Assembly: GCA_973895155.1 (NCBI GenBank)
Contig: OZ316893.1
Location: forward strand, 27,476,210 to 27,540,209
Direction of reading: 5' to 3'
Source: Marsupella aquatica
Taxonomy: Eukaryota > Plantae > Marchantiophyta
Length of the DNA: 64,000 nucleotides
Part shown: positions 9,301 through 64,000 of the stretch, one piece after another
How the letters are laid out: each line of letters begins with the position of its first letter
How positions within the stretch are numbered: position 1 is the stretch's first letter
Position numbers and translations under genes: made by a program
The notes under the pieces: generated by a model
Seen by the model: only the letters and a program-made list of their open reading frames with translations
Database searches by the model: none
Told to the model about the DNA's origin: nothing

Positions 9301-9993
9301 AAGTTTTCGGCTGGTCTCCCAGAGCCTCAAAATTAATGCTCCGATTTAGCTCTCAATAAGCCAGATCATACCTGCCGTACCGGGACATGGTTTGGAGAAA
9401 GTGCACTGAACTGAATCCAGAACTCAAACACAACTCAACCTCCAAGAATGCTCTCAAAGCTCAATGTGATGCATGAAAATTTCGGGGAAAGCCTCTACTT
9501 CTCTCCAAATTGGAAAGGTACAGTGCAGTTCAAGTGCTTTCTGCCACCGGTACCTGATGGCTTCGATTTCACTACCGAACCCTTCACTTCGAAGTAGACA
9601 AAATCCGTTGATATGACCAGCCCCTCTGGTCCACCAAGCCACGACAACTAACAATTCATCCTCCACTTCCAAAACGTCAAGCGGCTCGACTATGATCGAG
9701 TCAATTGGTCCCACAGAAGAAAATATGCATGAATGCATATGTGACCATAAATTTTTATCAGCATTGTAGACTTCTATGCGATGGCTCCCCACACCACTCA
9801 TCAGATGGAGTTTTCCGTGTGCCGTGAAAAACAACGGGTTTGGACTTGTCCAGGAACTGATTCTCTCATTCCTCCACTGATCCCTGGTGGGATTGTAAAT
9901 GTCGAAAAATTCCTCGCGATTGGGATCGAGTTGGCCGTAATCATCTTCAGGAACTGGAACCCCTTTCAAGATGTCTCTGGTCATCCAAAACTC

Positions 9994-10253
9994 TGTTAAG
10001 TTTACGACGTTCATCCGGTGTACATACGCCACTTGCTGTTCCTTTGTCTGTTCCCCCTTCGCCTAGGTGTTATCTGGGGGGCCTGTATATGTGTGATTAC
10101 CGTTAGATTTAGGGTTAATCTTACTTACGGTCCGATTAGTATTCACTGTGCGGTGCATTCTCTCGCCGACCACTCTCTTAAGGACCAATTCACTGTTCAT
10201 TCTGTATTCTTGCTGAGTAAAAACAAGGGAAGCTGCGCTCGTCAGTTTCTTCA
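9994..10253 (+). repeat. 5' LTR
   Basis: TGTTAAG...TTCTTCA. I see 3 mismatches against the 3' LTR. Confidence 0.95.
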
Positions 10254-10265
10254 TGGTATCAGAGC
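10254..10265 (+). promoter_or_regulatory. Primer-binding site (initiator tRNA-Met)
   Basis: TGGTATCAGAGC immediately after the 5' LTR. Confidence 0.93.
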
Positions 10266-10326
10266 CCAGACTGCCAGAGCACGATCGTGGTGAGAATCTC
10301 CCAGCGTTACTCGCGTGCTGAGCAGA

Positions 10327-13300: not shown

Positions 13301-15082
13301 TCGCACTCTCGGGGGTTTCACTTCCACAAAAATGGCATATCACGTGCGACGAAGTATAGGGTCATTTTATTGGTTCGAAGGGAAGACTTAAGAATTTTCT
13401 GAGAAGAAAAATATGGTCTTTTAAATCCAATTTTGAGACTTATAAGAACATTAGGGTCCTTATAACCAAATTTTTGGAATATTCCAAGAATATTCCAATT
13501 TTATAGGGGTTGAAAAAATAAAAAAATTTCTTACATTTTAGGGGGTCCGAGGCCTAAAAACGTCACAGGTGATGGGGAGACATCCATATAGTGAGACCCC
13601 CGAGCTCGCACTCGACTGAAAGCTCGCCTGGTGGCTCGTGGTATTGAACAGCGCTTTGGAGTTGATTTTGAGGACACTTTCGCACCGGTTGTCAAGTGGT
13701 CAACCATTAGACTGGTTATTGCACTCGCTGTAGCTCTTGGCTGGTCTATCAGCCAAATGGATGTCATCACGGCTTTCTTGAACGGCAAGCTCAAGGAACT
13801 AATCTACATGGTGCAACCACCAGGATTTGAGGTCCCAGGATCCGAAGACCTTGTGTGCCAGCTAAATCGATCCATCTATGGCTTAAAGCAGTCCTCGCGT
13901 GCATGGTATGAGGAAGTTGATCGGTTCCTTCGCTCAAAAGGGTGGACCCGGAGCACTGCTGATCATAATTTGTACTTCATCAACGAAGGAGGGAAAATTG
14001 TTCTTCTTCTTCTTTTCGTTGATGACCTACTCATCACTAGCAATGACGATGCCAAAATTGATGAGGTCAAAGCACAACTCAGCCAACAGTACAAAATGAA
14101 GGATCTGGGCAAAGTCACCAGGTATTTGGGAATAGATTTTGTAGATGTGGCCGATGGAATGTTCATCCATCAACGTGACTACTGCCAAAGCTTCCTGGAG
14201 GAATTCGAAATGCAAGACTACAAAGGAGGAGCGACTCCTCTACCCGAAGGATTTGATGTATCGGCTGATATGCTATCACCTGGCGTGGATGCCACTCACT
14301 ATTGCAAGTTAGTTGGCAAGTTGATCTACTTAACTAACACCAGACCGGATTTGGCGTATGCGGTGGGGATTCTCAGCAGATTTATGTCATCTCCACAACA
14401 AAAACACATGGATGCTGCAAGGCACGTTCTCAGATACATCAAATCCACCATTGATTTTGGCTTACTCTTCCAGAGAACTGGAACTTTGTCTCTCTCAGGC
14501 TACACTGACTCAGACCATGCTGCGTGCAAAGACACTCGAAGATCCATTGGGGCCTATGTGTTCCAATTTGCTGGGGGCACTGTTACTTGGGCGAGCAAAC
14601 GAGAAGCAACGGTCTCACAGAGTACAACTGAAGCTGAGTACAGAGCCCTATCGGAAGGAGCTCGAGAAGCTGTCTTCCTTAGGCGTCTGCTCTCAGAGTT
14701 GAGCTTCATCCCAGAAATTCGGGTGGCATTGAATTGCCAAAATCAGGAGGTGATTTCAAATCTGTCGGTGGCCAGTCAACCCACCTTGCAAGATGCTCAT
14801 CTAAACTTACATTGCGACAACCAAGGCTCAATTAATTTGGCGAAGAACCCCATCTTCCATGCTCGGACCAAGCACATCGAACTCCAGCACCATTACATCA
14901 GGGAAAGAGTCCTGGAAGGAGAAGTGACGCTTAAGTACATTCCAACTGCAGAGCAACCTGCAGATATCCTTACAAAATCCCTTCCAAGATGGAAGTTTGA
15001 GAAACATCGTGAATTCCTTGGCATGAAGTCCCTACGCGACATTCTACCTACCCTGGGTAACGCAGCTACTCGGGATGCGTAG
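10327..15082 (+). pseudogene. Copia gag-pol polyprotein, disrupted
   Basis: Zn knuckle CNFCGHTGHWEGEC, protease WLVDSGAS, integrase HHCC plus HTD/RSD/AER, RT KARLVA...LLFVDDLL, RNase H GYTDSD/EAEY/CDNQ/ADILTK. Lesions: TAG at 10852-10854, a frameshift before about 12996, and a MITE at 13308-13604. Confidence 0.95.
13308..13604. mobile_element. 297-bp MITE with 14-bp TIRs and an 8-bp TSD
   Basis: CTCGGGGGTTTCAC ... GTGAGACCCCCGAG (1 mismatch). TSD CTCGCACT at 13300-13307 and 13605-13612. Excision restores VNPTRTRLKARLVA. Confidence 0.95.
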
Positions 15083-15644
15083 CATCGTGATATACCTCTA
15101 AGCAGTATTCACATCTATATAGCTGACCACCAAAATTGCCTTGCCCCATGCTTCGAAATCGGTGCCCATGGACTGCATGGTCCCCTGCTCGCTGCAACTT
15201 ATCCTGCAAGTATCGTTTCGCCTCGCTTCTCGTCTTGAATGACTTGTACACCTGACCCTTATACCCCTTTACTTGTGGCTCGCAGTCCTCCCAGGAATCA
15301 TACAATCCTGGAACATATCCCCGCACCACTGCATAGTACTTTCGCCTTGTGGTATGGTCACTGAAGTAGTGGGATGTTGGCACAACTGGCTGTATCGTGT
15401 GCTGTGCACCCTGTACATCAGGCGCTCGGGCGACTTTCACCATTACCTGTTTGCCCTGCTCCCCTATCTGTGGCTCGTCCTCTCTCTCGCCCTGGTGCTC
15501 TTCTACCTCAGTCGCACTCGCATTCAACTTCCATTGTACATACTGGAATTGAGTCTCGACCATATCTCCCAGCACCTTGAGTACCAACCTTATCGTACCC
15601 AACAACACCCAGAGCACTTGCAGGCCCACTCTGCTTACATCCAT
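15066..15644 (-). CDS. Antisense ORF of the copia element encoding an RNase H1 N-terminal hybrid-binding (Cauli_VI-like) domain
   Basis: Open ORF between pol and the PPT containing KYYAVVRGYVPGLYDSWEDCEPQVKGYKGQVYKSFKTRSEAKRYL. It has a hydrophobic N-terminus and a C-terminal H...CEYC. Confidence 0.8.
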   Translation of the reverse strand: MDVSRVGLQVLWVLLGTIRLVLKVLGDMVETQFQYVQWKLNASATEVEEHQGEREDEPQIGEQGKQVMVKVARAPDVQGAQHTIQPVVPTSHYFSDHTTRRKYYAVVRGYVPGLYDSWEDCEPQVKGYKGQVYKSFKTRSEAKRYLQDKLQRAGDHAVHGHRFRSMGQGNFGGQLYRCEYCLEVYHDATHPE

Positions 15645-15679
15645 TCTCCACACTTGCTCTGTGCATTTGATGGATTACC

Positions 15680-15692
15680 GGACGGGAGGGGG
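15680..15692 (+). promoter_or_regulatory. Polypurine tract
   Basis: GGACGGGAGGGGG directly before the 3' LTR. Confidence 0.88.
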
Positions 15693-15952
15693 TGTTAAGT
15701 TTACGACGTTCATCCGGTGTACATACGCCACTTGCTGTTCCTTTGTCTGTTCCCCCTTCGCCTAGGTGTTATCTGGGGGGCCTGTATATGTGTGATTCCC
15801 GTTAGATTTAGGGTTAATCTTACTTACGGTCCGATTAGTATTCACTGTGCGGTACATTCTCTCGCCGACCACTCTCTTAAGGACCAATTCACTGTGCATT
15901 CTGTATTCTTGCTGAGTAAAAACAAGGGAAGCTGCGCTCGTCAGTTTCTTCA
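15693..15952 (+). repeat. 3' LTR
   Basis: 260 bp, near-identical to 9994-10253. Confidence 0.95.
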
Positions 15953-17782
15953 AACTCATCCCCAACAATTTCAACTCGATCTGAAGTACTCCGGGCTGGC
16001 ACAGGACTAATCCGAGACCAAGTATCTTCATTGGGGTCATAAACCTCTGATCCAGCACTACCGCAGAACTCATCATGTCCTCCAAATACGAAAATCTTGC
16101 CGTCCATGACCTTACATGCAAATTCCTCTCTGGGCTCGATCATATCTGCACACTGTTTCCATTGCCCTTGCTCAACGAGGTCCAAAACATACATCTCACT
16201 ACTTATCTCAGTGCGCCGAGAATCATATCCTCCAAAGATATATATTTTTCCCTCCAATGACACGCACTGACAAGTTTGGGAACCATGGAGTTTGAACATC
16301 AGAGATGAGAGGAAGTTGACGATAGGAATTGTCCCTCATCGAATAAAGAGCTAACCGACAACTATCGCTCTCACCATCATGACATCTGATGAGAACAGCC
16401 GTCTCTGTAGAGTGGTGATGCACTCTTAGATTGTAGGCTTGACGACTTCGAATTAGACGGCGCCAAGCAAACGAAACTGCCGATAGGGCATACAGGTCTC
16501 TCCAGTGCAGCTTCGGGATAACCTTGTTCAAAGTTATATCATTAGGGATCCCTGGAAGAAGACCTTGAGAGCTTCGCTCAATTTGGGACGTCATCGGAAC
16601 TTGGATCCAGTTGCCTACAGATACCCTATTGATGCGTGATGGATAGACAGTCCTGAATGTTTGGTGGAGCTATCTTAATTGATTAACAGACTTCTTCCGG
16701 ATGAAGTTCACATTATCTGAAAACATCACAAAGTCCTTAATGAACATGAATACCCAGCGAAACTTTCCTGATTCGTATCCTAAGAATACATCTCATATCC
16801 GGAAATCTCATATCCGAAAGTATCAGCTCAAACAAGTCGTGAAAACTACATTTAAAAACGATATCAAGTGTATCATGCCGCCGTTTTACGCGTTTTCCCC
16901 ACTGGATTGAAATCACCCCTCACGTTACATGAAGTGCTCGGTAGAATGCATACCTGGAGGCAGCTAACTGCGCCGAAGCTAATACATACTGCATAACTTG
17001 GCTGAGTTCGTTGCAAGTTGTAACTGCACATTCGATGATCTGCACAAAGAGAATCATCGCCGATCACTTATATCTCCGCCTGCTGAAATCAGTGAGAGAA
17101 TGTGTAACAAGCTCCCTAAAGCTAAGGACCGAAGATTTTTGAAATCAGCCGAAGTAAGAGGAGTTACTGTGAGTCTTCACGAAATCAAACCCAAGTCGGG
17201 CTTGCTGTCACACTCTTGATGATATCAATTGTACTAGCCGTAAGTCTTGACCAAATCAGACCCCAAGTCGGGCTTGCTGCCAAACCTCGATGATATCAGT
17301 TGTAGGCGGGGCAGCGATTGCAGGAGCCGAAGCCCGATGAGATCTCTCAGACTAATAATTCCGCAGCCGTGAGGTCGAGCTCCACTTTGCGCACTGGCAG
17401 GGCAAGAGATCAAATTCGTAGGGCGACTCTTACATTGTGTCACTCTCCCGACATTGTGTCACTCACAGTAAATCGCTAGCTGAAGGGAAGGCTTGGATCG
17501 ATCGATCGCCTGCTGGATCGTGCGGACGGAGGCACGACACGGAGGTGGGAGCGCGGACGAAAGGCAAGCTGGTGCCATGAGGGTATGGGTACGGACCAGT
17601 GGGTCTTTTTTTAAAATTTCTGCAGGGTGTCACTTAGGGCTTGTTGAGATTCCTCCACGTAGTCTTCCTGGATTTGTATGGTCAAAATATGACCGTTAGA
17701 TATATGCAGTGTGAAAACATGACATTGAAATTAATATTTTGAGAAATTCCTATGGTTCTTGTTACTGCACTCCAATATATTG

Positions 17783-18005
17783 TAATGTTTCAAGACCTTT
17801 CCAACAGTATCAAGATAAACAATTTGGGTTCACTAACAAGAGAGTTATGAAAGGTCAATCCTGACCCAATGGGTAACTACCAAAAACAACCAGCAACTTT
17901 GAGATTCACATCTTCTTTGTTAGTAAGCATCAGTGAGCCATCTTGAGCTTTTTGGAAATGATTTATCATGATGACCTTGCCATTAACACCTATAATGCAA
18001 GGTCC
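17783..18005. repeat. Degenerate fold-back repeat related to the flanks of the 20-33 kb element
   Basis: The left half (AATGTTTCAAGACCTTTC...AGCAACTTTGA) resembles 19948-20073. The right half (TTCACATCTTC..TGTTAGTAAGCATCAGTGAG...CCTTGCCAT) resembles 33037-33115. Confidence 0.6.
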
Positions 18006-18731
18006 GGACTAATTTTGCAGTGGTAGTCTTACAAATTTGTAGTGCCAACTTTCTTGGAGACAAGGAGAGGAGGACAAAATGGAGAGGGAGTAGCAAGGAG
18101 TATTTGTCCCACCTGTGACCTGTCAATGGAAGTTACTTTGCACCAAGTAAACCAAGCCCCAAAAGTCGTCCATCCATGTCAATCCTATTAATTATCCATG
18201 TCAATCCTATTAAGTATCCTGTTTGTCACATTTGCAACAAACTAAACAACTGAAACTTAACACATGTTTTAGAGTTAAGTGGATCAATCTTCCACATTTA
18301 ATTTTTGAAGGTCCAATAGAGCCTCTTATAAGCCTTTACCCATGTGCTTGCCTTTGTTCTCTTTTACGCGAGTCCAATATTTGTTTTTAGATAACAATGT
18401 GTTTTCCTTCATGACATCTTAATTTGTGCAGGCAACAATATCTGACTTTTATGCAACATTTTCAATATTCATATTGCATTTTACGAGCTTGGGCTTTTAG
18501 TTTGTTAGTTCGTAGGGATATCATAATTCAAGAGAGCATGGGTTAAGTTGACCAACTGTGTTAGGGGACTGTGATTTTCTGAGAAGTGTTTGGGGGGTAG
18601 GGGGTTTTTACTGAGGTGAAAATAGTTACTGAAATTTTACTCTTTCAACCCCGGAGGATCCAAAACAGTCAAAACAACTTGATTTGGGCACAAGTGGCCA
18701 GTCTGAATCGGAAACTTGACAGTGTATCTAC

Positions 18732-19064
18732 TGTTGAACTAAGACGTCATTCGCAACGACCATACAACCATGACTCATTCCATGCACACGTAGTCGACAC
18801 AATCTCTACGTGGTTCACCTCTTCTCCAAGGCTACGTCCACACGAACACTCAAGCTTTACTTCAAGAGTAGACGAACACACATCTCTCTCTCTCTTCCTC
18901 CTGTTGCTCTGTTACAATGAGTAAGCACCACCCACCAGCGGCTTACACTAGCCCTAGTATATACAAGGTCACACACGACTAATCTAACCTCAGCTAAGAT
19001 CCTAACTGTGGTTAGCCTAAGTGCCGTAACCTATGAGTCACAAGACTAAGAGCAATCCTTAACA
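18732..19064. mobile_element. Solo LTR (333 bp)
   Basis: TGTTGA...TTAACA with a 5-bp TSD TCTAC on both sides. Same family as 43675-44030, in the opposite orientation. Confidence 0.85.
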
Positions 19065-20783
19065 TCTACTTCAAGAATCCTTCTCAGGCAGAACAGGTTT
19101 ATTGTGGAGTTTTCTGATGTTTGCGTTTCACTACATTAGGATGCAAAAAAGTAGTGGGGAATATGAGTTGTTTTAGCAAACCAAATATACTCCTTGCAAG
19201 AATGGCTTTAGTTAGCATAACAGATTTGGAGATTTTTTCCCTTGATTTGGCGTTTTCAGACAAAAAGTATCCATATTTGGAATCACATATTGGATCAGAA
19301 ATTGGATTATTGTGCTGAATTGAGTTTTTGTAACAACAAAAAATGTGATTTCCATCATTAATTTTTTGCAAAATCAAAAATCAAAAACACACTTCTGGTT
19401 AGCAGGTCATACTTCTGGTTTGGTCAGTCAACATGATTGTTCTTAATATCCTGGCATTAGGATTGCACTTTGTTGCAGCAACTATAATGGAACAAGTAGG
19501 TAGTGTTAATTTTCAAAATCCAGATTGCATTGTTCATAGATGCCTGAGCACACATACAAGTTCTGGCATGGGATACCATGAGGTCAAGAATGCGATTGAG
19601 AGTTATCAATGACCTCCATCATCCAATTCTAAATATGAACATCTTTGGCAGCCAAATGCAACCTAACTTGTCAAGGCTTGCATTTGAGGAATGTGTGCGA
19701 ATTAACTTTGCCTTTGCCCTGCTTACCATTCGATCACTTGATAATGGTGTGCCAGTTATCCTTGGTTACTATATGCTGAAAATGCCTTTACCAGATTCTT
19801 GATAGGGTCCAAATGAGATCTGCAGGATCTGCTCCTCCACTGCAACTGTATACAAGATTCAAAAATGAAATTGAAATCATTTTCAGAAATTTATAATTAT
19901 TTTTCTTGTTAGTCAATGCCAATTGGAAATCTCAAGCTCATTGGAAATAATGTTTCAAGACCTTTCAAACGACATCAAGATCAACATTCTAGTCTAGTAA
20001 CAACAAAGTTATCAAAGGTGATCTTTGCCAAATTAGTCCGCAGCTACAATAAACAATGAACGAGCAACTTTGAAAATATCACCCTATTCATTAAAACTGG
20101 AATTTCTCTAGTCCAGAAGTTGACCTTCAAATTTCTTATTTTACCCCCAAAAGTTCTATAACTTGTTCCCCAAAAGCATACATTTTAGTGGCCAAATATA
20201 CACTTTTTGAGGTCTAAAATTACAATTCTAATGCCCAAATTATTAATTAAATAATTCAGTTATCAATTATTAATACTTATTAATTAAAAGACATTAAAGT
20301 GTTCTTATTATATACAATATAAACAATGAAAAAATAGAATAAGACAATATAATAAATTGAAATGACCATGATAACCAAGTTACACAAAGTAACACGAAAG
20401 GTAAACCGATGATGTATTATAAAAGTAAAAAACCTATTTTTACAGGGTCGAGACCACGTCTGCCCCAATGCAGGCTCTAGATGGTTTTGACCGGTTGTTG
20501 AATGTATATCAATTACTATGTAAAAACTTATGTCAAGATTATCTCGACCCAAATGTAGGGTCCACATAATTTTGACCCGTTGTTGAATCTATATCTCTAG
20601 CTATTCCCTTTGTAGAGGGTCTAGACCCAAATAACCTTTTTCTGAGAACATATCTACAAGTAAATGAGGATCAACAGCATCTAGACTCAAATGGATACTA
20701 CGCATAGCTTCACTCTTTTTTCGAGTAAGAATATGTATATGTACAACTCACATCGTAACTGTTCAGTGTAGGGTCGAGATAAT

Positions 20784-22058
20784 CTAGACCCAAATCTCAT
20801 GCTCCTCCACCCCGCAGAATTCATTTGAGCAAGTAAACCTAGACCTTGACGGGTCATATTTCATATCGCGATTACAGAAATTGAGAGGCTTTCTATTCCA
20901 GAACTTTGTTGTGAGGTCCCTACACCTCAAGACTTCCAAAACAAATCCCCGATGATTGTCTCTGTAGGGTCCTGTGTACTGATATCCAATTAATGTCTTT
21001 GCAAGGTCGTTGATCGCCTCCTCCGTCAATTCCTCCATTGGTGGTAATTGTTGCACTTCATTTTTGATATCCCAGGGAATTTCGTCCGCTGTAACATCCA
21101 AGACTGTATGGATAACATTGGGAACCCATACCATACTACCCCACCTCTCCGACAACAGAGCATAAATGGCAGCCTGTTGATCCCTGTCCGATAAAACATT
21201 GATCATAGACCACTTTGGATGATTGATAAAAAGATAGTGCTGAAGATTGAAGGCATGATACAATTTCCTGAGCAGAGGCCACAGTATTTCTGGAAAGAAT
21301 GTATCATCCGTGGAGTGATGCGAAAATGAGGAAGGAAACAACCCACAATTCTCTGGATTTGCAAACGCCTTCATTGGAGTGTCATCAAGAAGGAGTGTAT
21401 TAGTTTCGTCGTATAATCCACCATAACGTTTCCAAACAACTCTCAAATCCTTCAAAAGAATATTTGCCTTCCCATCGGTAATGTCAGGCCTCTGGATTCT
21501 AGTATCGAATGTATCTTCTTGAGTGAGAATAAACTTGAATTGCTCTCTCTCTTCTTGATTGAAGATCAAATGAATCATTTCATCCGTCCTGGGTTTCCTT
21601 GCACAAGTCCAAATGGCAAGATCAAATAATGAAAAAGCTGCGATTAAGAACTCGTGAAGATGGGGTCGCTCAACATACATAAAGTTAAACCCTCCACGTC
21701 TCCCCCAGTGGACACCATTGACACTTGTCGCACTACGGCGCGGTCCGGAACTTGGCGTTTTGACAGAATCCCAACACATTTTGTTGAGGTCAAGAATCAA
21801 TAGCTTCCGTCTGATTGGACCGTGAAGTGGAGGCAAGGGTCCTGCAAAGTACGAACACCAACGTTAGAATTGTGGGAGATAAAACAAAGGAATGCTCGAG
21901 ACGATCTCGATCATCACAAGTGAATGAACAACAGTCAACATCATACCTGTTGTTTGTGGAAGGTCAGTAGTTGAAGAAATCTCAGGACATCTTCGGAGAT
22001 TATTGTCGACGCACTCCACAATTGGTAAGGGCCCGCCTATTTCTGTGAAGGTAGACAT
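20784..22058 (-). CDS. FCP1/NIF-type HAD phosphatase-like protein (exons about 22058 or 22042 to 21947, and 21841-20784); may be the 3' part of the upstream gene
   Basis: KLLILDLN, ERPHLHEFL, LAIWT, LLKDLRVVW and NTLLLDDTPMKAFANPEN are FCP1-homology motifs of the DxN-type subfamily. A phase-1 intron, ACAG|gtatga ... ctttgcag|GA, joins the exons in frame. Confidence 0.8.
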
Positions 22059-22112
22059 AATAATTTAGACGGCTGAATTTCCGGACAGTTCAAACTAACT
22101 TGGGTTTCAACC

Positions 22113-25100
22113 TCACGTGCTGAAAGACCCAAATTCATCTAGAAGGTTATCTCCTAGTTGGTTTTGGATGTCCAAATTTATCCCTCCGGGAAGGGTCTCA
22201 ACAAGAGCTGGCTCAGACCAAATTGGCACTAATTTGAACTTATCCATCCTATACTTTCTAGATCGAATAATCTTCTTAGACTGCTCTATAGAGACTTGTT
22301 GACCTTTTGACGGTCCATCAGTCCAAACATAATGAGTAGCACTTGCTTTGAGTGATTTGTAACCAGTTCTACCGATTTCAGTCCCCGGTTTCCTAACAAA
22401 AGGGAGAATTACGGGGCTTCCAGTAGAAGAATCTGTGAAAACAAGCTTATTCTCTGAAGTGCAAAACATTTGGTCCAAGGGAGAGGACGATGCACCTGCC
22501 TCGTCCTGAGGGGGAGTATGGAAGCCACTAGCTTTCTTAGTAGAGAAAATCTCATCCAGTTGAGGAGGGCTTGGAATTGGTTGGCTAACTGCATCCTGCA
22601 GGGTGGATTCCCAGCCAACATCCAAGGTTGAAGACTGTTGTTCACGTTGTGCATCCCCAAGGCCACCCGATGAAGGAACACTTGGAACATCGAGATCATC
22701 TCGAGCATCATTTCCAAATTCAGGGAGTATTTCACCCTCCTCTTCCATGTAGCTTGTAATTTTCGGGCCCTCCGTTTTGCGATGCTCTAAATTCTCCGCA
22801 AATACTTCCTCATAAACACTGGCTTCCACTGGAGCTATGTCTGCGGCCGCCTCTTCTATAAGAACGAGGGGACCAGCAGTAATTTCCTCAGATGGTAACG
22901 GCTCCTTGGGTGGCACATATAAAACTTGCTTGTTGTCATGAAGGAGCTGAGCAAAGGCTTCAGTGAATTCCATCTCTTGAGCTGTGTCCGAATACACAAA
23001 ACAATCCCGACCAAGAATGACACAAGCTTTCAATGTCTGTCCTCCAGAGAAGAAATCCAACACTGTATGACCTGGGCACGAGAAATAATCAACAAGACGC
23101 TTTGTCATTCGCAAAGGCTTTGCTCTCGGATTTACAAAGCCACCACGCCGACCGACCATCTCATAAGATGGGGCCATCTTCTCCAAAACTTTGACATCAA
23201 CAGTGGATTCATCGAGCTTCTCTTTCCCCTTTGATTGGTCTTTGTTGTTCCCAGTAGGGGCCTTCAAAGGCAAGACTGTGAAGTCTTTGTCCCACTTCTC
23301 ACTGTAGTTCCAGAACGCATAAAAGTCATCAAAGAAAATTTGGGACCAGTCTGGTTCCTCTTCACAACAAATTCCCCCAAAGATGATTGAGTCCCGAGCT
23401 CCAATGAGAAAATCTCCCTCCTCCTTGGGCACCTGATCACGGTAGTAGCTCCCGTACTCCAGCTTCGTGTGCACTTTCTTCTCACGACGAATCTTTTCAA
23501 AGGCACTCTGAATCTGGCCTATCAATGGGCCTTGACGGACAAAAAAGATTACTAAGACCTCCGTCGAGTTCGCCATCTGCAAGCAATACTCCAGCAAGAC
23601 AAAAATTTCGGCATCTGTCCACTGCCGTTGTCGAATACGACCAAAATTGACAATGGAGAGTCAACAACCTCAGGCTTCATTGTCCTCATCAAATTATCGC
23701 TAAAAAATGTGCGATAAGGAGTATCCTCCATTGAAGGCAATCTGCCAAATACCTTGCAATATATCTGCTCAAGCCTCACAATGAGACTTTGCGGAAATGG
23801 GTCTTTTGGCCTATTTCTTTTTAGGAGGTTGGAAATCCAAACCTCTCCAGCAAGTTGTCTAAGTTTGGGCAACTCACCACGATCCATAAATGCAGGCAAC
23901 AATTGAGTTAGCTCAAACCAAGTGAGTGAATTGGTAAACCGATCCGGATACTTCAAAACGAAGTACTCCACAATTTTTACCCTCAGCTTGGTCATGACTT
24001 TGAAAGTATGAGCCATATCACTCATTGATTGAATATCAGATTTGTTGGTTTGGTCTTTCTTCAATAAAACCTTCTGTTGTTGAACGGCAGTAAAAACTTT
24101 CAGAATGTCGTCATTACTCAGGTCTCCTTCAAAGCATCTAAACAATGCCGGCGTAATCATTTTTGTTGTCCGGGCTTTCCCATTTATTTTTGAACCTAAC
24201 TCCCCTAGACCATCCGGAAGAAGTCCCTTGACCCAATCGATGCACATTTGTCTCCAAGTTCGGAAGAGGTTCTCATCCGAAAACAACAACCAAAAAATAT
24301 TCCTCAGATCGGATTTTCCAATCGTTATTTTGGCAAGGGCCATAAAATCCTGGTCCAAACAGTACAAAACAAATCTGAGGCTCGAGACGATCTCGAGGTA
24401 GAATTAAGGAACTATGATAAAATTTATGGGGAATACATGAAGATAAATCAAATATAGAAACTTGACCTCGAGGCTCGAGACAATCTCGAGCTCGAAGTGG
24501 ATTTGAGTTCAAATATACCTAGAACTTTTGATGATCCGTTAGTCTATTGGACCCAATCACGGGTCTCTCCGGACGGCCACACTCGTCAAACTGTCGACGC
24601 GCATGGACCATAGTATCAAGAAAACAGGACTCATACTCCATTGTCTTATTAACAGCATTTGCCCTTTGTGAGTGTTGAGCAAGTATTGTCCTTGGAGTTC
24701 TGTCCGAAAGAATTCGTGACGTTCGATATTGCAGACTCTTCGCGACCTCCTTCAACTTTGCATCGCTCTTAGCCCAACCTATGATCCAAACAGCTGCTTT
24801 TGCCGAGTGTTGTCCACTGATTGCAAGGAACTGCACCTTCTTATTCTTAACACCCCACTCAAACTCCTTTCGATCCTCAGCAGTATTCTCATAATGGAGC
24901 AACTGCAAACTCTCTCTTGAATACGGAATTAAATCCGCCACAGCTGGTACCATTCCAGGGTTTCTAACCATGGATTTTGCGACCTCCATGGCATGGTCTT
25001 TATTGAACATCCTATAAACCAAAACTGCAGATGGCGAATCTATACTGGTGACAGGAATGTTAAAAGTTTCATTCATGCCAAATGTGTAATACTCCTCAAT

Positions 25101-27012
25101 CTCCTTAAGAACTTCGGCTCCTTCCTTAACGCTCTTTTCTCCCGGAGCATCTCCTGGAGTGCCATCATCATCGGTATGTGCATTCACACCCGAGGAAGAT
25201 GCCGGAATGAGATCTACCTTGGGCGATGCGGAATTTTTTGGCGGATGAGCCTTCTTCGATTTGATTTCGGGTTTGTCAACCCTCTTCCTCTTTTGAGACA
25301 CCTTCGCTTCATTTTTGTCCGAACCGGAGGTCTTGTCTCCTGCAGCTACGGATTTCACTTTACCTGTTTGTCTCCGATGAGACAACACCCACTTTTTACA
25401 AGCATCTTGGTCAAATTCTTCGGCTCCAAACACAAAATCAGAGGATATAGATTCAAACTCCCCCAATTTGGATTCCAACATTAGTCTCAAAACCTTCCAC
25501 GTGAAAGGAGTCGTGAATGCATCATCGCGATCAAGCCCATACTTCCGACAATAAAGGAATCCAAAAATTATGTCCGCTCCAGATATAGGAGTATCTTCTA
25601 GCAAATTACTTGTAGTGAAACCCTCGGGGAAGAAACCCATTGATATCACGCTCAGTTGTTTCCTGGCTGCACGTTCAATGTTAAGATCGCAAGAGTAGTT
25701 TTTGGCGTGAAGTCTAATTAGAGCCCACTTCCCTGTTTCGTGGTTCTCCACCGTCAAAACCATGTCCTTACCGTTACTCGTCACAATAGAAACAACAGGC
25801 CCTAGAAGGCTGCACACCAGAGGATCGACTGATGGAGACCTCGTCTTCACACAAATAATAGTTCCTTCCATGTCTTCAGTTTCAGCAAGCTCAATGGCCC
25901 AACAGAATCCAAATAAACTCTGTCCAGGGCAGGAAATCTCAATTGCATGTTCATCTTCGACTACCAGATTAGGCGATCCCAATTTCGCACCTGTACAGCA
26001 AAAATATAGCAATTGTCAGGAACATGTACTACAAAACCAAGAAACAAATAGGTGGCTCGAGATGATCTCGATCTTCAGTTTACTATTCAGACATGTTCCA
26101 ATGTCATTTCATCCGTGGAATTTAAAAAGAGATTTCAAACCCAAGAATCCCAGGAAACACAATAGGCTCGAGATGATCTCGAGCCACCATCTGTTTAAAA
26201 GAAAAAGATAAGGGCTCGAGATGATCTAGATCCACATATATATCAGTTGAGGCTTTATTCCAACTAGTCCAAAAGGCAAGTTTGGATCACATTGAAAAGG
26301 ATATTAGTAATTGAAGTAGACAACAAGGAGTCCTTCCAACTGGAAGAAATTGGCCAAGGGAGACGAATGAACATAAGGGAAGACGGTGTGGGATATATTC
26401 GGCTCGAGACGATCTCGAGCCTAACATATCAAATGAGTGATCTGAATATCATATTCAACAATTAACATCATATTCAATCAACGATAAAAAATCCACTTTC
26501 TCCATTAACTTCGGATACCCACAAACCCGTTCGGATGTCAATGATCAGAACGAGTTGGAGGGCACAGAAGTCCCTGGAGGAAGGAAATTTTAGATATTTT
26601 GGATATAATGTTCAATTTTGAAGGGTAAGGGTTTCCAACTTGAAGAAATCTCACTAGGTCACATGCAGGAATTGCATATTGGCTCGAGACGATCTCGAGC
26701 CTCATGCCACTTACATCAAATGCAAAATCAATTAATAGATCACAACTTTTGAAACAAAGTATTGGAGAAAACATCAATAGGCTCGAGATCATCTCGAGCC
26801 TCAACGGCATCCAAGGAATCCAAAAACAAGTGGACCAATTGAAGCTCGAGACGATCTCGAGTTAAACCTGAACAGAACAAAGATGAAGAATTACGTTTAA
26901 TCGTGCGATGGATCTGATGTGCTGAGTCTAGATGGGTCTGGAGCTCTTCGCCAACGGTTGCAAGGTTGTACTCAGCGAAGTCCTCCTTGGAGAAATCTAC
27001 AACAGTCGACAT
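22113..27012 (-). pseudogene. Multi-exon gene: ParB/Srx-like domain plus N4/N6 DNA-methylase-like fold
   Basis: Exon 25990-24519 (acceptor tgtacag|) has IPVTSID...R.FNKDH...FLAISGQHSAKA. Intron 24518-24350 is preceded by TAG at the junction. The exon from 24349 has a frameshift at about 23590 and then NPRAKPLRMTKRLVDYFSCPGHTVLDFFSGGQTLKACVILGR. Upstream exons from ATG 27012 are tentative. Confidence 0.7.
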
Positions 27013-28165
27013 GGCTGGTGATGAGAGGAACGTACTACGGGCTGAGAACTTAAAACAAATCTCGACCCTAAAAAGAAAATCTCGACCCTATCGAAGCTCG
27101 AGCCTAAACACAAAATCTTGACCCTATAAAATCTCGAGGAAAAAACCTAATCTCGATCCTCTGCAATCTCGAGGCTAATAGAAGGATCTCGAGGCAAGAG
27201 CGCGAAACGATCTAGAGGCAAGGAGGCAAGGGATGCGAGGAGGCGAAGAGGCAAAGAGGCGAGGAGGCAAATGTGAAAATGGGGAGTTCAAAACCCCTGA
27301 AGCCACTATAAGCCCCTCGGGGGTCGGCCTTGGCCGTGCCAAGCGTGCCAGGGCTCGTGCAGGCTCAGGCAGGCTGCCACGCAACCTACTGAGTGCGTAC
27401 AGTCATTATTACGGTCACACGTGTTGTCATTATTGTTATCCATACTTCAGCCCTGCCGCAAGTTTAGCCGTGACACAAGTTCAACCATTCCGTCTTATTG
27501 CCCTTTTTGTCTGTCAGGGTTTTATATATTGCTTCTCCTTGCTCTTCAGCGGGTCATTCTTCTCATTTCGTTTCACCGCTCGCTCGTTTCTTCCTCTGCC
27601 TCTCTGCTCTCTCTCCCTCTCCCTCTCCCTCTTTCTGGCTCTAGATTTGTGCTCTGATCTCTTTCTGTTGTTCTTTTCAAGGATTTTGGAGTCTACGTTT
27701 GTGTTTAGGATATTTCAAGAAATTGTCATTTTAAGCCCCGAAGGAGGTCTAAAATAATTGAGCTCCTATCTTTTAGAAAACCGAACCTTTTCAGCTTATA
27801 CTAATGTCGGTCAAAATCCATTTGGAAGCCTTTTCCCTCTATTTGATGGCCTTTTAGAAGCTTTTTCTCAGTGTCTGGAAGTAAACTGGGAGCCTACTTT
27901 CTTAATTGCACCAAATCATTCCTCTAGATCATCTAGAGCCATTTATATGTTCTTATTTTGGGTGGCTTATTATTCCTAATAGTTTCTTTGTCAAATACAA
28001 TGTCCTTTTTGGCTCGAGATCATCTCGAGTCATAAGTTTGGTCCTCAAACTTATTCACTTTCCCCTTCTTTCTAATGGTGCATTTGGTTTTCCTTCTTAT
28101 AATAAATGTTTTTAGAGTGTCGGAGGTATAGAATCTTAGTTCGATATTCAGTGAGATTCATATTT

Positions 28166-28394
28166 TACCTCGAGATCGTCTCGAGCTAAATACTTCTGAA
28201 TTTTTACATATTGGTGTTTTTGGTCCCTTTTCTACCTCGAGATCGTCTCGAGCTAAATACTTCTGAATTTTTACATATTGGTTGTTTTGGTCCCTCTTCT
28301 ACCTCGAGATCGTCTCGAGCTAAATACTTCTGAATTTTGACGTATTGGTGTTTTTGTCCCTCTTCTACCTCGAGATCGTCTCGAGGTAGAAGAG
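28166..28394. repeat. 67-bp tandem repeat (about 3.3 units), each unit carrying the palindrome
   Basis: Unit TACCTCGAGATCGTCTCGAGCTAAATACTTCTGAATTTT..., with a period of 67/67/66 bp. Confidence 0.92.
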
Positions 28395-28517
28395 CTTCTT
28401 ATTTTCTCTATCACACAATTTTGTGGGATAAACTTCTACACTTGGGTTTTTGTAGTCACTTTACCTCGAGATCATCTCGAGGTAACTACATCCAACGGTT
28501 TGGGCCACGTTTTCAAA

Positions 28518-31500
28518 ATGGGGAGTTTCTCTCGAGGGGACAAGGTGTGCCTCGTAATCGACGGAGTGGAAGTTGCTTGCGGGACGGTCCTCAAGGTTGA
28601 CCCGGGTGACTCAGTGCGTAATGTTGATTTGGGAAGTAATCGTATAGGAGTTCTCATTGAGAAGTGCTATGAGGGATCACGGGAAATTCCTTACCCTTTG
28701 CCGCCGATCAGGACCCTGTTTGATGCTGTCGACTCTTGCATTATTTGGGATGCCCCTTTTGCATATTTGAAGTCACAGTCAACTCCAGCGACAACGAAAA
28801 TGGATGCCTCCTGTTCTACAAAGGATACGGTTCCGGGTTTTGTACCAGAGAAATCGTCGGTGGAAAGTTTTGGAGACTCGATTGTATCTGGCGATGAAGT
28901 CGAGGTCTGGATCGGCAATCAGATTGTGGCTCGTGGATTTGTGTTCAAGACGAATCCCGATGAGACATGTCACAATGAAAGACTTGGCACTTCTAGGATT
29001 AGTGTGAAAATATGTGAAGTTTTTCAAGGAAGGGAGAGGTTACCCTTTCCTCACAATGGAGCCGATACCGTTCAGGAAGCATTGGATACTTTTGTATTGT
29101 GGAATTTAAAGGATGTTACTCGGAGGAGTTCTTCCCGGGATATGCTAAACAACCTGTCCAGACAGGATGTTTTTCAAATTATAATTTCAAGGATTATAGT
29201 TTGCGTTCTAATTGGATGACCGAGGAGGTGGAATTGTATGCTGAGGATAATCGGACCAAAGTGGGGGTTGGCATCATCACAGTTCCTTTCGAGTCAGGTG
29301 CAATTGATGATGATGTTCTTGGACCAGATCACGTTGGGGTTGCTGTCACACGCGTGATTGACCCTCTATTTTTCCCAAATATCTCCCCGGGAGTGCCTGG
29401 TCTTGTTAGGTGGGCCGTCCGTTCACTTTTGCTGATATCAAGGGGTATTTTTCTTCTGGATCTCATTGAAGAGATTTCTCCGAAACCAATTATTGATGGT
29501 CGAGATCATCTAGAGGTAGATATGAAAGGTGACACTGAGTTTTTGAAGCGCCCGTATAATTTCATCAAGAGAACAAAGGTCAACCCAGATGAAAAAAGGA
29601 AGAAGCACTTGGAGTCTCGGGCGATACTGAAAATCACAGAGGAGGAAATCGACTCCATCCAAAGAGAAGGTTGTTGTAAGTTGAAGTGTTGCCTCAGCAT
29701 GCCGAGAGAAGACCTACAGGCGATAAGGAGGGAATACCATGGGATGTCAAGCGACAACAAAACTAGTCACATTCTCACTTTTTTTGGCTGTAGGGAGAAG
29801 GAAGTGGAGACAAGGATATTTTGTTGTAAGAAGTAGACTTGTTTGCAAGGGTGCATTTATTAAAATGCATGGATTCAGCACTGCCAAGTATTATGATTAC
29901 AAAAATCAATATGAAGCAGGTTGCACTGTTGGATTCCACGGAAACAAGGGTTCACACAAGACACGGGGAAGCACCTTGCATGCTCGTGCTTTGTTGGAGT
30001 CCATTCTAACCCAAAACGAAGAACCCATGCCGCATCTTCCCTATGGAGGGTCTCACGGGACTGACACGGTTGAGTACAGACTTCCATCTTGTTTCACGAA
30101 GAAAGAGATTTTTGAGGAGGTATACTCAAAAATGGAATTAGATGGCTACGTGAAGGTGAGTGAAAACACTATGTATAAACTCTGGAGTGAGTCCTTCATG
30201 AATTTTGACTTTCACAAGGGAAGTGCATTTGCAAAGTGTACACTTTGCACTGAGTTCAAAGATCAGTTGATGCGGGAGAAGAGAAAGAAAGAGCGTTTAG
30301 AGATTGAGGAAAGAAGAGCTCGCCATCTTCGTGAGCAAATGTCTAGGAGATATGTTTACTATGCTCATAGGGTTCTTGCGAAGAAGGATCTTGAGAACTA
30401 TCTTTGCATTATACATGACAAGATGGACCAGGCCAAGACATGGATCCCTAGGTTGGTCCCCACTCCTAAATCATTGTCTGGTAGTGGTCAACCGCTCCCC
30501 ATTGCGCTCACTGGGATGTTGACCCATGGAAGGGATCCCGGAGTGTATGCTCACTTCAGTTTTACTGGGCTTTGGCCAGGAGATGCAGACTTCACAGTGA
30601 CATCATTGGCCAAGTGCCTTAGAGATCTGGAGGATTACAAGGGGGACAAATCTGGAGACCTCCTTTAAGGATTATATTGGGCTACAACGAGGCCAATTTT
30701 TCAATCTCTTTTGGACTTTGAAGCATTTCTCGCAGGTTACTTAGAACCCAAAAAAGTCTCAATTGCTAGATTTCAAGGAGCTGAAGATGACCAAGACGAC
30801 TTTGGTGTTGATCCCAAGGCTACGTCTACCTCTTTCAAACCATTGCCAAGGCACCTGACCTTGCAAATGGATAATTCAGGGAAAGATAACAAAAACCAGT
30901 ACGTGATGGCATTTTGCAGTGAGCTTGTTAGTAGAGGGGTTTTTGAAACAGTGCAGATGTCGTTTCTCATGGTTGGTCACACCCATGAGGATGTCGATGC
31001 ATTGTTTTCAAAAGTATCCAACCAAGTGAAGTACAAGGAGGTTTCTACCCTCTTGGGGTTGATGGCTGAGGTTTGGGAGTGTGAAAGCATTCATCCTGTG
31101 CCACGGTTGATCCAAGAGGTTGCAGCTTACAAAGAGTTTTTGAAAACTTTCAAGGTAAAAGACATAGAGGGTCACTCAAAACCAGTGGCATTTCTTTTCT
31201 CTATGAGAGATAATGTTCCAATATATCAATACAAAGCACATGTGAAACAACCTTGGTACCCTCCAACCGGAAGGTCCATTTGGAGAACTGATTCCAGCAC
31301 CAATGCTCTCATTTTACCAGAAGGTCAACCGTTTGCAAAACCCATCTCCGGGGATGTACGAGGCAAGGTTGAAGAAATCATCTCATTCCTTAATCGTTAC
31401 ATTGAGTTTTTGAAGAAGAGCTGTAAGGATGAGACCTCTACAGCATATCGTGAGCGGTTTCCTTTGGTAAAATATTGGGAGATGGTGGTGCAAGTATTAT

Positions 31501-32204
31501 CTGGGGAGCTTACAATTGAAGGGGAGGCAGAAATATAGTTAGCATTGACATATGAATTCTGGCCAAAAACCAACCACGGAACTGGTTACAAGGTTAATAG
31601 TACAGGAACCTCTGAACCATTGGGGGAGCCTAGTAGTAGTACACAGAATCCACAAATGGTGGAGCTTAAGAATGAGTACCTGGAAGAGATGGAGGATCAA
31701 GCTGCAACATTTGTTGGTGCTCGACACGAGCGAGAACTTGCACGTTGGATTCCTCTGCAGGACATTCAAGAGGGTCACTTTGTATTTCTCCGTCCAGAGG
31801 ATGAATGGGAAAAGAAGAATGGGAAAGAACGTTTCTGGTTGGTGAGAGCTTTGGGTGTTGTGGACCCAAACCATGAGGTTCCTTCAGAAGACTTGCAATG
31901 CAATGAGAATTCTCCTACTAGTACACGGTATGCTCCTATGTTCCAAGTGCAATGGTGGAGGCCTAAACATGGTAAGCATGATGCACCGGATCATGTGCGA
32001 TATTCACGTTGTTTTCAGACCACTAAGACTTGGGAGGTGGATCCTGGGTTTGACAGTGCCACTGAACGTTGGCAATTTGCTAATTCTGCTATGTATGGAT
32101 TCAAGTCACGCTCTAGAGAAGAAAATATAATTGATAGAGGTTTGACCATTCCCAAGAATGTTTTGAAAACACTCAAAACCTACATGGAAGGGATTGTTGA
32201 GTAA
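28518..32204 (+). pseudogene. Transposase, Sola1/DUF7869-like RNase H fold, with three N-terminal Tnp1/En-Spm-like repeats
   Basis: Motifs CTLC, CIIHDKMDQ, LQMDNSGKDNKN and FLMVGHTHEDVD. Five ORFs join into about 1230 codons through two frameshifts (about 29150 and 29800) and two in-frame stops (30666 TAA, 31536 TAG). Confidence 0.8.
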
Positions 32205-33121
32205 GTCAAATGTTTTTTAGTAGTCACTCTGTCAGAGTGAGGGAGTCTAGTATGTCAATTAGTTTGGAATTAGACATGTCAGAGTGAGGGAGTCTATGTC
32301 AATTAGTTTGGAATCAGACATGTCTTTAGTACTTACTGAGTGTTGGTTAGTACTAAGTACTAGTATATCTATTTAAGGAACTAATTATTATAATATTTTG
32401 GGATACTAGTTTGAATAGGTGGAGGTAATTGGACTTGGATACCTTTATAATTGCTTCAATTAATTATTATATCAATACAGACTATATATTACATGAAGTC
32501 TTAATATCCATGATAGGATGTGAGTGCCTCTTAGTACTGTCTAGTAAACCTTAGTTTCAACTCGAGTTGCTTAGAATGTACTAACAAATTACTTGTTTGA
32601 ATGGATATTTAAACTAAACCCTAAGTAGAAGGTTAATTTAGCTAGCTAAGGGTAGAGATCATATTGAAGCTTTACTAGTTATATGGGTAGAGATCATATT
32701 ATTTGAAGTTTTACTAGTTATATGGGTAGAGATCATATTGAAGCTTTACTAGACACTTATATTCTATTAGTCAAATTGAATCAATGTAAGTAAATTCTAC
32801 TTCTTATCCAACATATTTTACATTATTATCACCCAAATGTTTTTCTTTAGAATCCAAATTAATATTTCATTTTCTCCTATGTACAATCTTGATCCCCCAA
32901 ATGTACAACATCTGGTGCCCAAATGTACAACTCCCACTGCCCAAATGTACAATTCTTGTGCCCAAATATTTTTTTTTTGGTGCCTAAATGTCCAAAGATC
33001 AAAGAATTTTCCAGTTTTAATGAATAGACTGATAAATTCACATCTTCCTTGTTAGTAAGCATCAGTGAGTGCTCTTGAGCTTGAACTTTAAAAGGATTTT
33101 TCAATACCTTGCCATCACTAC

Positions 33122-36400: not shown

Positions 36401-36491
36401 GAATGTTCTTTGGTTAAGCTTCATCGTTGACCAACAAAGTGCTCTATAGAGTTGAGGGTTCTGGTCCCTAAGTTGGTAAGGAGAGAGAGAG

Positions 36492-37259
36492 ATGGCTGTG
36501 CAGAAGTTATTTGATGTTTGCAAAGCAGTGTTTCCAATGGCCGCCAATTTTGCACCTCCATCTGCGGAGTCTCTGCACCGAGTGCGTACAGTTCTGGATG
36601 GTATCAAGGCCGCAGATGTTGGGCTCGAGGAGAACTCTGTCGAGCAGGAGCGAGGGTTTGGCATGTTTGGGAGGAATGGTATGAGAGGGCGGCACTCCAT
36701 CTCCGCCCGGTGGGCTCCTCCGATTTCATACCTCCATTTGTACGAGTGTGAGAGCTTCTCCATGGGCATATTTTGCCTCCCAACATCAGCTGTGATTCCC
36801 CTCCACAACCATCCCGGCATGACGGTTTTGAGCAAGATGCTATATGGATCCATGCATGTCAAAGCATACGACTGGGTCTCCTCTCATGATGAAAGGCTGA
36901 ACGGGAATGCGTCAAGGCCAAGGATTGCGGAACTGGTGCTAGACAAAATCTTGACTGCTCCTTGCGAAACCGCCATTCTGCATCCCACAAGCGGAGGAAA
37001 CATCCATGCGTTCACTGCGGTGACCCCTTGTGCTGTACTCGATGTTCTGGCTCCTCCATACTCTGCAATAAATGGCAGGCATTGCACATACTACAGGGAG
37101 TACTTAACTGGCCTTCTTCCTGGGGTTGAAGCAGGGATACTAAAAGATGAGGGCACGGATGAGAATGATCAAGGTTACAGTTGGTTAGAGGAATTCCAAC
37201 CTCCTGATGATTTTGTAGTGCACAGGGGCGTATATAGGGGTCCCAAGATTGTGCCGTGA
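36492..37259 (+). CDS. PCO: Plant cysteine oxidase (PCO/ADO family), coding region without introns
   Basis: VQKLFDVCK, YLHLYEC, PLHNHPGMTVLSK, GGNIHAFTAVTPCAVLDVLAPPY, GRHCTYY and YRGPKI. The His triad HNH...H is present. Confidence 0.95.
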   Translation: MAVQKLFDVCKAVFPMAANFAPPSAESLHRVRTVLDGIKAADVGLEENSVEQERGFGMFGRNGMRGRHSISARWAPPISYLHLYECESFSMGIFCLPTSAVIPLHNHPGMTVLSKMLYGSMHVKAYDWVSSHDERLNGNASRPRIAELVLDKILTAPCETAILHPTSGGNIHAFTAVTPCAVLDVLAPPYSAINGRHCTYYREYLTGLLPGVEAGILKDEGTDENDQGYSWLEEFQPPDDFVVHRGVYRGPKIVP

Positions 37260-43674: not shown

Positions 43675-44030
43675 TGTTAAATATTGCTCTAGTCTTGTGA
43701 CTCATGAGCTAACCATAGTTAGTTTAACTTGGGTTAGGACCGAGGTTAGGACTTAGCTAATGTTAACGGTAGTGCTGTTGTGAGTATAGCCAGGGCTGAT
43801 GCCAGACCCTGGTGAAACTTAGGCTCATTGTTACGGAGCTAGTTGAGAGATAGAGAGAGCTTGTGCTGTGGATGCTTGGTATGGCCAGTCGACCTAGAGT
43901 GCAGTAAAGTTCTTGTGTGTTCCCGTGGACGTAACCTCATGTGGAGGTGAAACACGTATCTCTTTGTGTCGACTCTTGTGCGTTGGATGGTTCATGGGCT
44001 TGCAATTGCGAATGTCGTCTATGCTCAACA
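43675..44030. mobile_element. Solo LTR (356 bp)
   Basis: TGTTAA...TCAACA with TSD AATGT. Its start TGTTAAATATTGCTCTAGTCTTGTGACTCAT matches the reverse complement of the end of 18732-19064. Confidence 0.85.
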
Positions 44031-63863: not shown

Positions 63864-64000
63864 CGCTAATAGATTTGGCCGGTGGGAGAGGTTTCCAAGT
63901 GGTAACGAGGCTGATGTGCGTCACAACTAGTTGTCACAATCGGGTCAGAGGTTGCCTCAATCTGTATCCGGCGGCGTCAAATTCATGCAATGCTGGCGAA

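Follow-up and report, generated by a model that had tools for sequence, protein, structure and literature searches.

What is encoded by a stretch of liverwort DNA in which a transposase gene diverges from spliced cargo on the opposite strand, and in which about twenty copies of a single palindrome lie between and within these genes? The question is raised by the interval 20078-33033 of a 64-kb window of Marsupella aquatica DNA (contig OZ316893.1, positions 27,476,210 to 27,540,209; "the window" denotes this whole stretch of 64,000 nucleotides, and coordinates are counted from its first letter). It holds a Sola1-like cut-and-paste transposon of 13 kb that belongs to a multi-copy family of a bryophyte-like plant, and this copy is dead. 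One of its cargo genes, gene A, joins a predicted ParB-like fold to a methylase fold that is probably a conserved pseudo-enzyme. We propose, with a probability of roughly 0.5, that protein A binds the element's own sites without acting as an enzyme and thereby keeps the element expressible.

Ends, insertion site and copy family

The termini, set by the pairing of inverted repeats together with the flanking AAAT, delimit an element of 12,956 bp with the following landmarks.

20074-20077: left target-site duplication, AAAT, identical to the four bases after the right end
33034-33037: right target-site duplication, AAAT, matching the left side
20078-20102, + strand: left terminal inverted repeat, 25 bp, matching the right repeat at 23 of 25 positions
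33009-33033, - strand: right terminal inverted repeat, 25 bp, pairing with the left repeat
17779-17990, + strand: natural empty site, an unbroken paralogue of the older repeat hit by the element, found by alignment of the joined flanks
28518-32204, + strand: Sola1-like DDD/E transposase with a tandem N-terminal module (PF25273, DUF7869, E 1.2e-39)
30414, 30864 and 30975, + strand: candidate catalytic motifs of the transposase, reading DKMDQ, DNSGKDNKN and GHTHEDVD

Once the element and one AAAT are taken out, the flanks form a continuous alignment with the older repeat at the empty site, which lies about 2 kb from the element; this target-site evidence comes from one insertion only. The earlier note had placed the ends at 19940 and 33120, and these positions have now been replaced. 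Its proposal of a single Sola-like element, with transposase and cargo inside shared termini, is borne out by the inverted repeats, the duplication, the empty site and a similarly raised sequencing depth of the two parts.

A matching stretch is present in five public assembly runs from three studies, which carry three organism labels; the best-matching run may derive from the source of the window itself. In run X2, the flank contigs have depths of 15-24; one ends at 20104 and another begins at 33007, the breaks expected from 31-letter words at these termini. Within the element, the cargo contigs have depths of 320, 377 and 305, and the transposase-side contigs 439 and 426; that is, both parts are raised to about 16-23 times the flank depth in these five longer inner contigs, contig depth being a rough guide. 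Both cargo and transposase are also covered, at lower identity, in the more distant run X5, and assembly junctions that skip 4-5 kb of cargo indicate that deletion derivatives exist.

The copy in the window is dead, as had been supposed from its stops and frameshifts. The transposase changes frame near 29120-29215, has lost 2 nucleotides at 29811 and contains stops at 30666 and 31536; gene A is interrupted by a stop where exon 2 ends and by a 22-nucleotide deletion at 23657. Relatives have 2 extra bases at 29811 and 22 extra bases at 23657, and therefore both of these frameshifts are specific to this copy.

We provisionally file the element as Sola1-like, and we take the DUF7869 domain with its three acidic motifs to be of Sola1 character. 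The AAAT duplication fits AWWT, which is a Sola1 hallmark (PMC3845634) and is a target of some Sola2 elements too (PMC3627910); the 25-bp terminal inverted repeats are a further Sola1 trait. The Sola2 motifs of Sola2_DFa-2 and Sola2_PPa-1 (DFKEN, D.A.HFKS and YHGKS), taken from the supplement sequences of PMC3627910 and compared by eye, are absent from the transposase.

The N-terminal module of the transposase is duplicated, its score being reached by 0 of 1000 shuffles. Region 28518-29117 holds two tandem 76-residue modules, perhaps with a third, which have no Pfam match and presumably resemble domains of CACTA accessory proteins. Five short CCCAAAT repeats at 32830-32970, near the right end, have related words near the left end and are candidate transposase-binding subterminal repeats.

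Palindromic sites and cargo genes

The features between the left end and the transposase start are as follows.

22113-27012, - strand: gene A, inferred exons 27012-26868, 25990-24519 and 24349-22113
25991-26867, - strand: intron 1 of gene A, with 7 palindromes
24350-24518, - strand: intron 2 of gene A, with 2 palindromes
24522-25160, - strand: ParB-like domain with an invariant ISGQHS at 24821, from an alignment of 12 proteins and a structure search with homologue P0008
22902-23740, - strand: beta-class N4/N6 methylase-like fold, motif I DFFSGG at 23057, presumed motif IV near 23648 without PP-aromatic
20784-22058, - strand: gene B, for a NIF/FCP1-type HAD phosphatase-like protein that ends in a helical, Cys-rich part; two inferred exons (22058-21947 and 21841-20784) and an inferred start codon
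27013-28517: region between the divergent genes, presumed to hold their shared promoter and 5' leaders, with half-sites at 27059-27217 and 7 palindromes at 27922-28481
20445-20791: variant palindromes and half-sites clustered 3' of gene B, from a palindrome scan

The palindrome has the 17-bp consensus CTCGAGA-YNR-TCTCGAG. The window contains 13 exact copies, and 16, 19 and 22 copies at up to one, two and three mismatches, respectively. All 22 lie within the element and none in the remaining 51 kb, and the 19 with up to two mismatches all fall between 21895 and 29515; the report of about 20 copies in the shared promoter and introns, without such a cluster elsewhere in the window, is thus upheld. 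In 100 order-1 Markov simulations of the region, the mean number at up to two mismatches was 0. Besides the 9 sites in the introns of gene A, 1 of the 19 is in the gene B intron, 7 precede the ATG of the transposase (4 of them within one 67-bp tandem repeat, hence not independent) and 2 are in coding DNA. Non-coding DNA accordingly holds 17 of the 19, though coding DNA makes up about two thirds of the element. A scan of viral contigs at up to two mismatches gave 15 loci, 14 with a single site and one with three, and 0 translated matches to the element.

Gene A encodes, in order, an N-terminal domain, the ParB-like domain, a helical region, the degenerate methylase fold, an acidic linker and a conserved C-terminal domain; the donor of exon 1 is one of two candidates. 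Homologues of exon 2 numbered 11 among 6941 candidates, four of them named Calypogeia fissa. Two Calypogeia gene models run on from exon 2 into exon 3 across an identical junction, with a glutamine in place of this copy's stop, and homologue P0061 has the ParB-like, helical, methylase-like and C-terminal parts in a single frame. Homologues at 30-57% identity keep both domain order and intron position. A query with the methylase region against 1.84 billion representatives returned 47 matches; an organism look-up of 20 of these gave four Riccia sorocarpa, one Calypogeia and a remainder without organism name. No relative of 857-2445 amino acids was found among 1257 candidates, no related locus in scans of metagenome and viral contigs, and no match by tblastn of P0061 against phage and plasmid records. 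The N-terminal (25302-25988, - strand) and C-terminal (22116-22481, - strand) domains are conserved and have no Pfam match.

A ParB-like fold followed by a helical domain is predicted for gene A from the model of one homologue, P0008. The Atlas model of P0008 (predicted template-modelling score, pTM, 0.67) aligns to models of ParB/Spo0J, DndB and DUF3723 with template-modelling (TM) scores of 0.46-0.64; against the ParB_N and DndB clusters the TM scores are 0.46-0.59 over 207-263 residues, with predicted models on both sides. The best Atlas feature match of its ParB-like region is DUF3723 (0.96, 188 shared features, TM 0.56). The window's own ParB-like domain scores 0.95 to a DUF3723 cluster and 0.91 to a ParB_N cluster, a recognition below the tool's threshold. 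The ISGQHS motif is invariant in 12 of 12 aligned proteins and has no arginine within it. Single-sequence folds were poor (predicted local distance difference test, pLDDT, 44 and 35), and neither model was used as evidence; Foldseek with the pLDDT-44 model gave nothing at E 0.001.

The methylase-like and FCP1-like folds read from the letters in the earlier note are both recovered by Pfam, and the ParB-like fold is supported through the homologue's predicted structure. Of the three refuting conditions set in the earlier note, two do not hold: that the parts occur independently without common termini, and that profile searches miss the folds. The methylase region matches PF01555 (E 2.3e-6; 28.1 bits against a cut-off of 26.7), and PHROGs returned DNA methyltransferase families over the identical 45 residues. 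Its C-terminal motif X-I-II region aligns to bacterial beta-class enzymes, with M.RsrI at E 0.001 and an hhalign probability of 94%. In a tally of 50 proteins (the 47 matches plus 3 cluster mates), the pattern [DNS]PP[YFW] occurs in two, both bacterial-type, and a catalytic DPPY/SPPY-type motif is absent from every family homologue found. DFFSGG is present in 22 of the 50 rows, with a one-residue gap relative to the bacterial motif. DTPY was rejected as motif IV, as it aligns instead to the upstream "EPF/EPY" position. Among variants of the methylase region, 20 of the 39 listed are synonymous, compared with 21% expected (one row at the deletion was dropped, and 5 further rows fall outside the count), so that the region is under purifying selection. 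Since no family homologue has the catalytic motif, the fold is likely dead, and a conserved pseudo-enzyme is the simplest reading. Inactive methylase domains carried by transposons are already known from DIRS1 elements (PMC4738411).

Gene B matches PF03031 (NIF) at E 1.4e-16 and has 4 close homologues at 40-61% identity, in addition to two host-type NIF proteins. The first Asp, the Thr/Ser, the Lys and the DD positions of PF03031 are all kept. The motif position reads DLNK in gene B and P0065, and DVNG or DLNG in the host-type relatives; the motif DxDx(T/V), which we take to be that of FCP1/SCP proteins, is not matched. By these residues gene B appears closer to the plant DxNG type than to FCP1 proper, with a Cys-rich tail added. 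It begins 55 bases behind the gene A stop. The divergent arrangement of a + strand transposase and spliced - strand cargo stands as first described, but the cargo, taken there for one unit, most likely consists of two genes. A fusion of genes A and B was considered and is unlikely: gene A homologues end near the same terminal motif (P0012, P0013, P0022, P0038 and P0061 shortly after it, P0018 slightly later), and the splice phases are incompatible with it.

Proposed binding of protein A to the sites, and the rest of the window

How would such a protein serve the element? We infer that protein A would grip the palindromes through its ParB-like part, as a dimer, and might then load or spread in the manner of ParB or VirB. 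The two divergent genes would in this way be kept expressible without DNA methylation, the bound region being locally protected from host silencing. The phosphatase-like protein of gene B may have a helper role, and the dead copy would depend on proteins made in trans by intact copies at other loci. This proposal assigns no DNA methylation to protein A, as the methylase fold has probably lost its activity.

The arms of the sites are conserved: 34 of the 38 arm CpGs at the 19 sites are intact and none reads TG or CA. Spacers read TGA, TCA or CAA at 10 of the 19 sites. Undecayed arms beside spacers that may have changed fit selection on the arms, although a choice of sites by their similarity to the consensus is itself biased towards intact arms. 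Outside the sites, CpG retention drops with distance from them (rho -0.50, p 0.009, across 26 windows that are not independent). The NCG share falls from 0.52 to 0.05 in the transposase, and cargo exons stay at 0.32-0.46; the 3' half of the transposase is more CpG-depleted than cargo exons at equal distance (p 0.002). As a sign of anti-silencing, this gradient is a weak hint.

The choice of sites by similarity and the non-independence of the CpG windows weigh against a site-binding anti-silencer, and so do several further points. The gradient is open to other readings, such as promoter distance or cargo age, and a nearby Copia element without palindromes has intermediate or similar NCG values (0.23-0.36). 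In the X2 assembly, cargo and transposase are never bridged by one contig from another copy. The ParB call depends on P0008 as its sole model, and all named rows lie below the tool's family-naming bar. Pfam gave no match on the window's ParB-like part and, among the 12 family members, DndB for two at E 0.031; a profile search of solved structures in the PDB with this region did not recover ParB. The arginine that we take to belong to the ParB nucleotide motif is absent from the family, and a CTP clamp is doubtful for this reason. At the presumed motif IV position, D-F/L-x-R follows a hydrophobic strand in 12 of the 47 matches (most others are fragments lacking the region), an equation with motif IV made by eye, the profile alignment spanning only the C-terminal 49 columns; the Riccia homologues P0047 and P0050 fail to align there. 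A D-F/L-x-R match in P0035 was dropped as off position.

A different explanation follows the proposal made for the Ectocarpus transposon Sola1-1_Ec32: protein A would be an active, unusual N4-cytosine or N6-adenine methylase, guided by its ParB-like part to its own element and marking it there. The above-cut-off PF01555 match, the 94% alignment of motifs X-I to bacterial beta-class enzymes, the aspartate retained at the presumed motif IV position and purifying selection all speak for it; yet the PP-aromatic motif occurs in no family member, DFFSGG departs by its one-residue gap from the bacterial motif in 22 of 50 rows, and the active Marchantia enzymes have TSPPY. We consider an active enzyme unlikely, and the self-marking by methylation suggested earlier is weakened by the absence of a DPPY/SPPY-type motif from every family homologue. 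If protein A is instead taken to bind the palindromes as a repressor or autoregulator limiting both genes, the position of sites around the divergent promoter and throughout the first intron is readily understood, and ParB-family repressors such as KorB exist. Further sites 3-7 kb from the promoter do not suit this account, and the CpG gradient fits protection better, though weakly; repression, too, seems improbable to us.

Another possibility is that the transposase binds the palindromes, for instance by way of its tandem N-terminal module, or that they take part in transposition itself, the cargo acting elsewhere. Variant sites do cluster 370-710 bp from the left end and the N-terminal module is duplicated, but the right end has no full site for 3.5 kb and the sites are mostly central and intronic; moreover, the arrays of Bostrychia adjoin a ParB gene under another transposase superfamily. 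We regard this use of the sites as quite unlikely. That cargo genes and palindromes are passive hitch-hikers, functionless for the element, would agree with the death of this copy and with the origin of 4 sites from one tandem repeat. It is hard to reconcile with the synonymous excess, with the domain order and intron position kept in homologues at 30-57% identity, or with 19 dispersed sites in unrelated flanks, and we give it very little credence. Non-catalytic binding of protein A to these sites, in favour of expression, remains the reading that we prefer.

Outside the element, the window contains a Copia retrotransposon at 9994-15952, with 260-bp long terminal repeats (LTRs) 98.8% identical and broken pol frames; an antisense open reading frame (ORF) at 15066-15674 encodes an RNase H1 N-terminal domain (PF01693, E 7e-19). 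Pieces of a Kelch-repeat gene lie at 15889-16669 and at 9454-10062 (- strand), beside the Copia LTR. The ORF on Copia's other side has no Pfam match, and a Kelch gene interrupted by Copia is a guess. A plant cysteine oxidase occupies a single open frame at 36480-37259 (PF07847, E 1.6e-70), and a 342-residue 2-oxoglutarate (2OG)-Fe(II) oxygenase ORF (PF13640) is found at 62892-63920 (- strand), where the local G+C content, 56%, is above that of the rest of the window. Region 18534-19100 is a repeat of very high depth in all four runs compared and is similar to 43675-44030 on the other strand; a degenerate tandem repeat array spans 60326-60950.

Comparison with known systems

The earlier note called the arrangement a new system, but the design itself is known: it was described in seaweeds in 2025, in Ectocarpus and Bostrychia. 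Sola1-1_Ec32 of Ectocarpus is likewise a giant Sola1 element with a 4-bp target-site duplication and an opposite-strand gene fusing ParB-like and N4/N6 methylase parts; its accessory protein was proposed to bind and modify the element's own sequence, and the closest match of that element is the transposase of Sola1-1_PPa from a moss (PMC12477816). The present element differs in being from a land plant, in its size (13 kb against 21.5 kb) and terminal inverted repeats (25 bp against 282 bp), in its second, NIF gene and in its mapped palindromes, the word palindrome being absent from the main text of PMC12477816. It also lacks a canonical catalytic motif, in which it may differ from the Ectocarpus protein. 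The Plavaka (EnSpm) elements of Bostrychia, PAG2 and PAG3 (bioRxiv 10.1101/2025.02.11.637652), are giant DNA transposons with a ParB-domain gene beside inverted-repeat arrays and a PF01555 gene; however, they belong to another transposase superfamily, their ParB domain is fused to a 2OG oxygenase and their methylase to SET, and their arrays are tandem and not spread through introns. In the literature searched, which took in few subscription journals and not Repbase, we found no description of such an element in a land plant and no paper combining DUF3723 with ParB.

As a functional model, the nearest case is VANC of the Arabidopsis VANDAL transposons, a transposon protein that binds motifs in its own element's non-coding DNA (PMC10398659); Petroll et al. 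(bioRxiv 10.1101/2025.02.11.637652) name VANDAL as the sole transposon for which binding and modification of its own sequence are known. The activity of VANC has been shown, whereas that of protein A is a proposal, and homology between the two is not suggested. Bacterial ParB/parS and Shigella VirB share the predicted fold and the palindromic sites, and VirB is a ParB-family protein turned anti-silencer (PMC10245682); here, in contrast, the element has no ParA partner, the nucleotide motif is altered, and P0061 is unmatched in phage and plasmid records. Marchantia MpDN4MT1 (bioRxiv 10.1101/2021.02.12.428880) places a prokaryotic-type beta-class methylase fold in a liverwort, but it is an active host enzyme with TSPPY, and a direct relationship to gene A is not indicated.

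DUF3723 is a conserved accessory gene of the giant Starship elements, and in one of two Starship papers (bioRxiv 10.1101/2021.12.13.472469, 10.1101/2025.02.28.640899) it is tied to bacterial segregation genes by another profile. Starships differ in being fungal, tyrosine-recombinase elements, and the DUF3723 likeness runs through predicted models, no sequence-level alignment having been obtained; it nevertheless gives a hypothesis for a Starship gene without assigned function. It is conceivable, though to us doubtful, that giant eukaryotic transposons have repurposed a bacterial ParB/parS module as a portable anti-silencing clamp, with intronic loading, VirB-like spreading, a dead methylase serving as reader of DNA or methylated bases, shielding from 5-methylcytosine, and DUF3723 of Starships as the fungal form.

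To the published design the present element adds a land-plant lineage, a degenerate methylase, another cargo gene, intronic palindromes whose arm CpGs have not decayed, and the link to Starship DUF3723. As the catalytic motif is lost throughout the family, binding appears to be more important than methylation in this lineage, which changes the algal model. The algal elements with ParB cargo are proposals, and this one offers exact ends, a 17-bp site with natural variants, a young multi-copy family and liverwort homologues.

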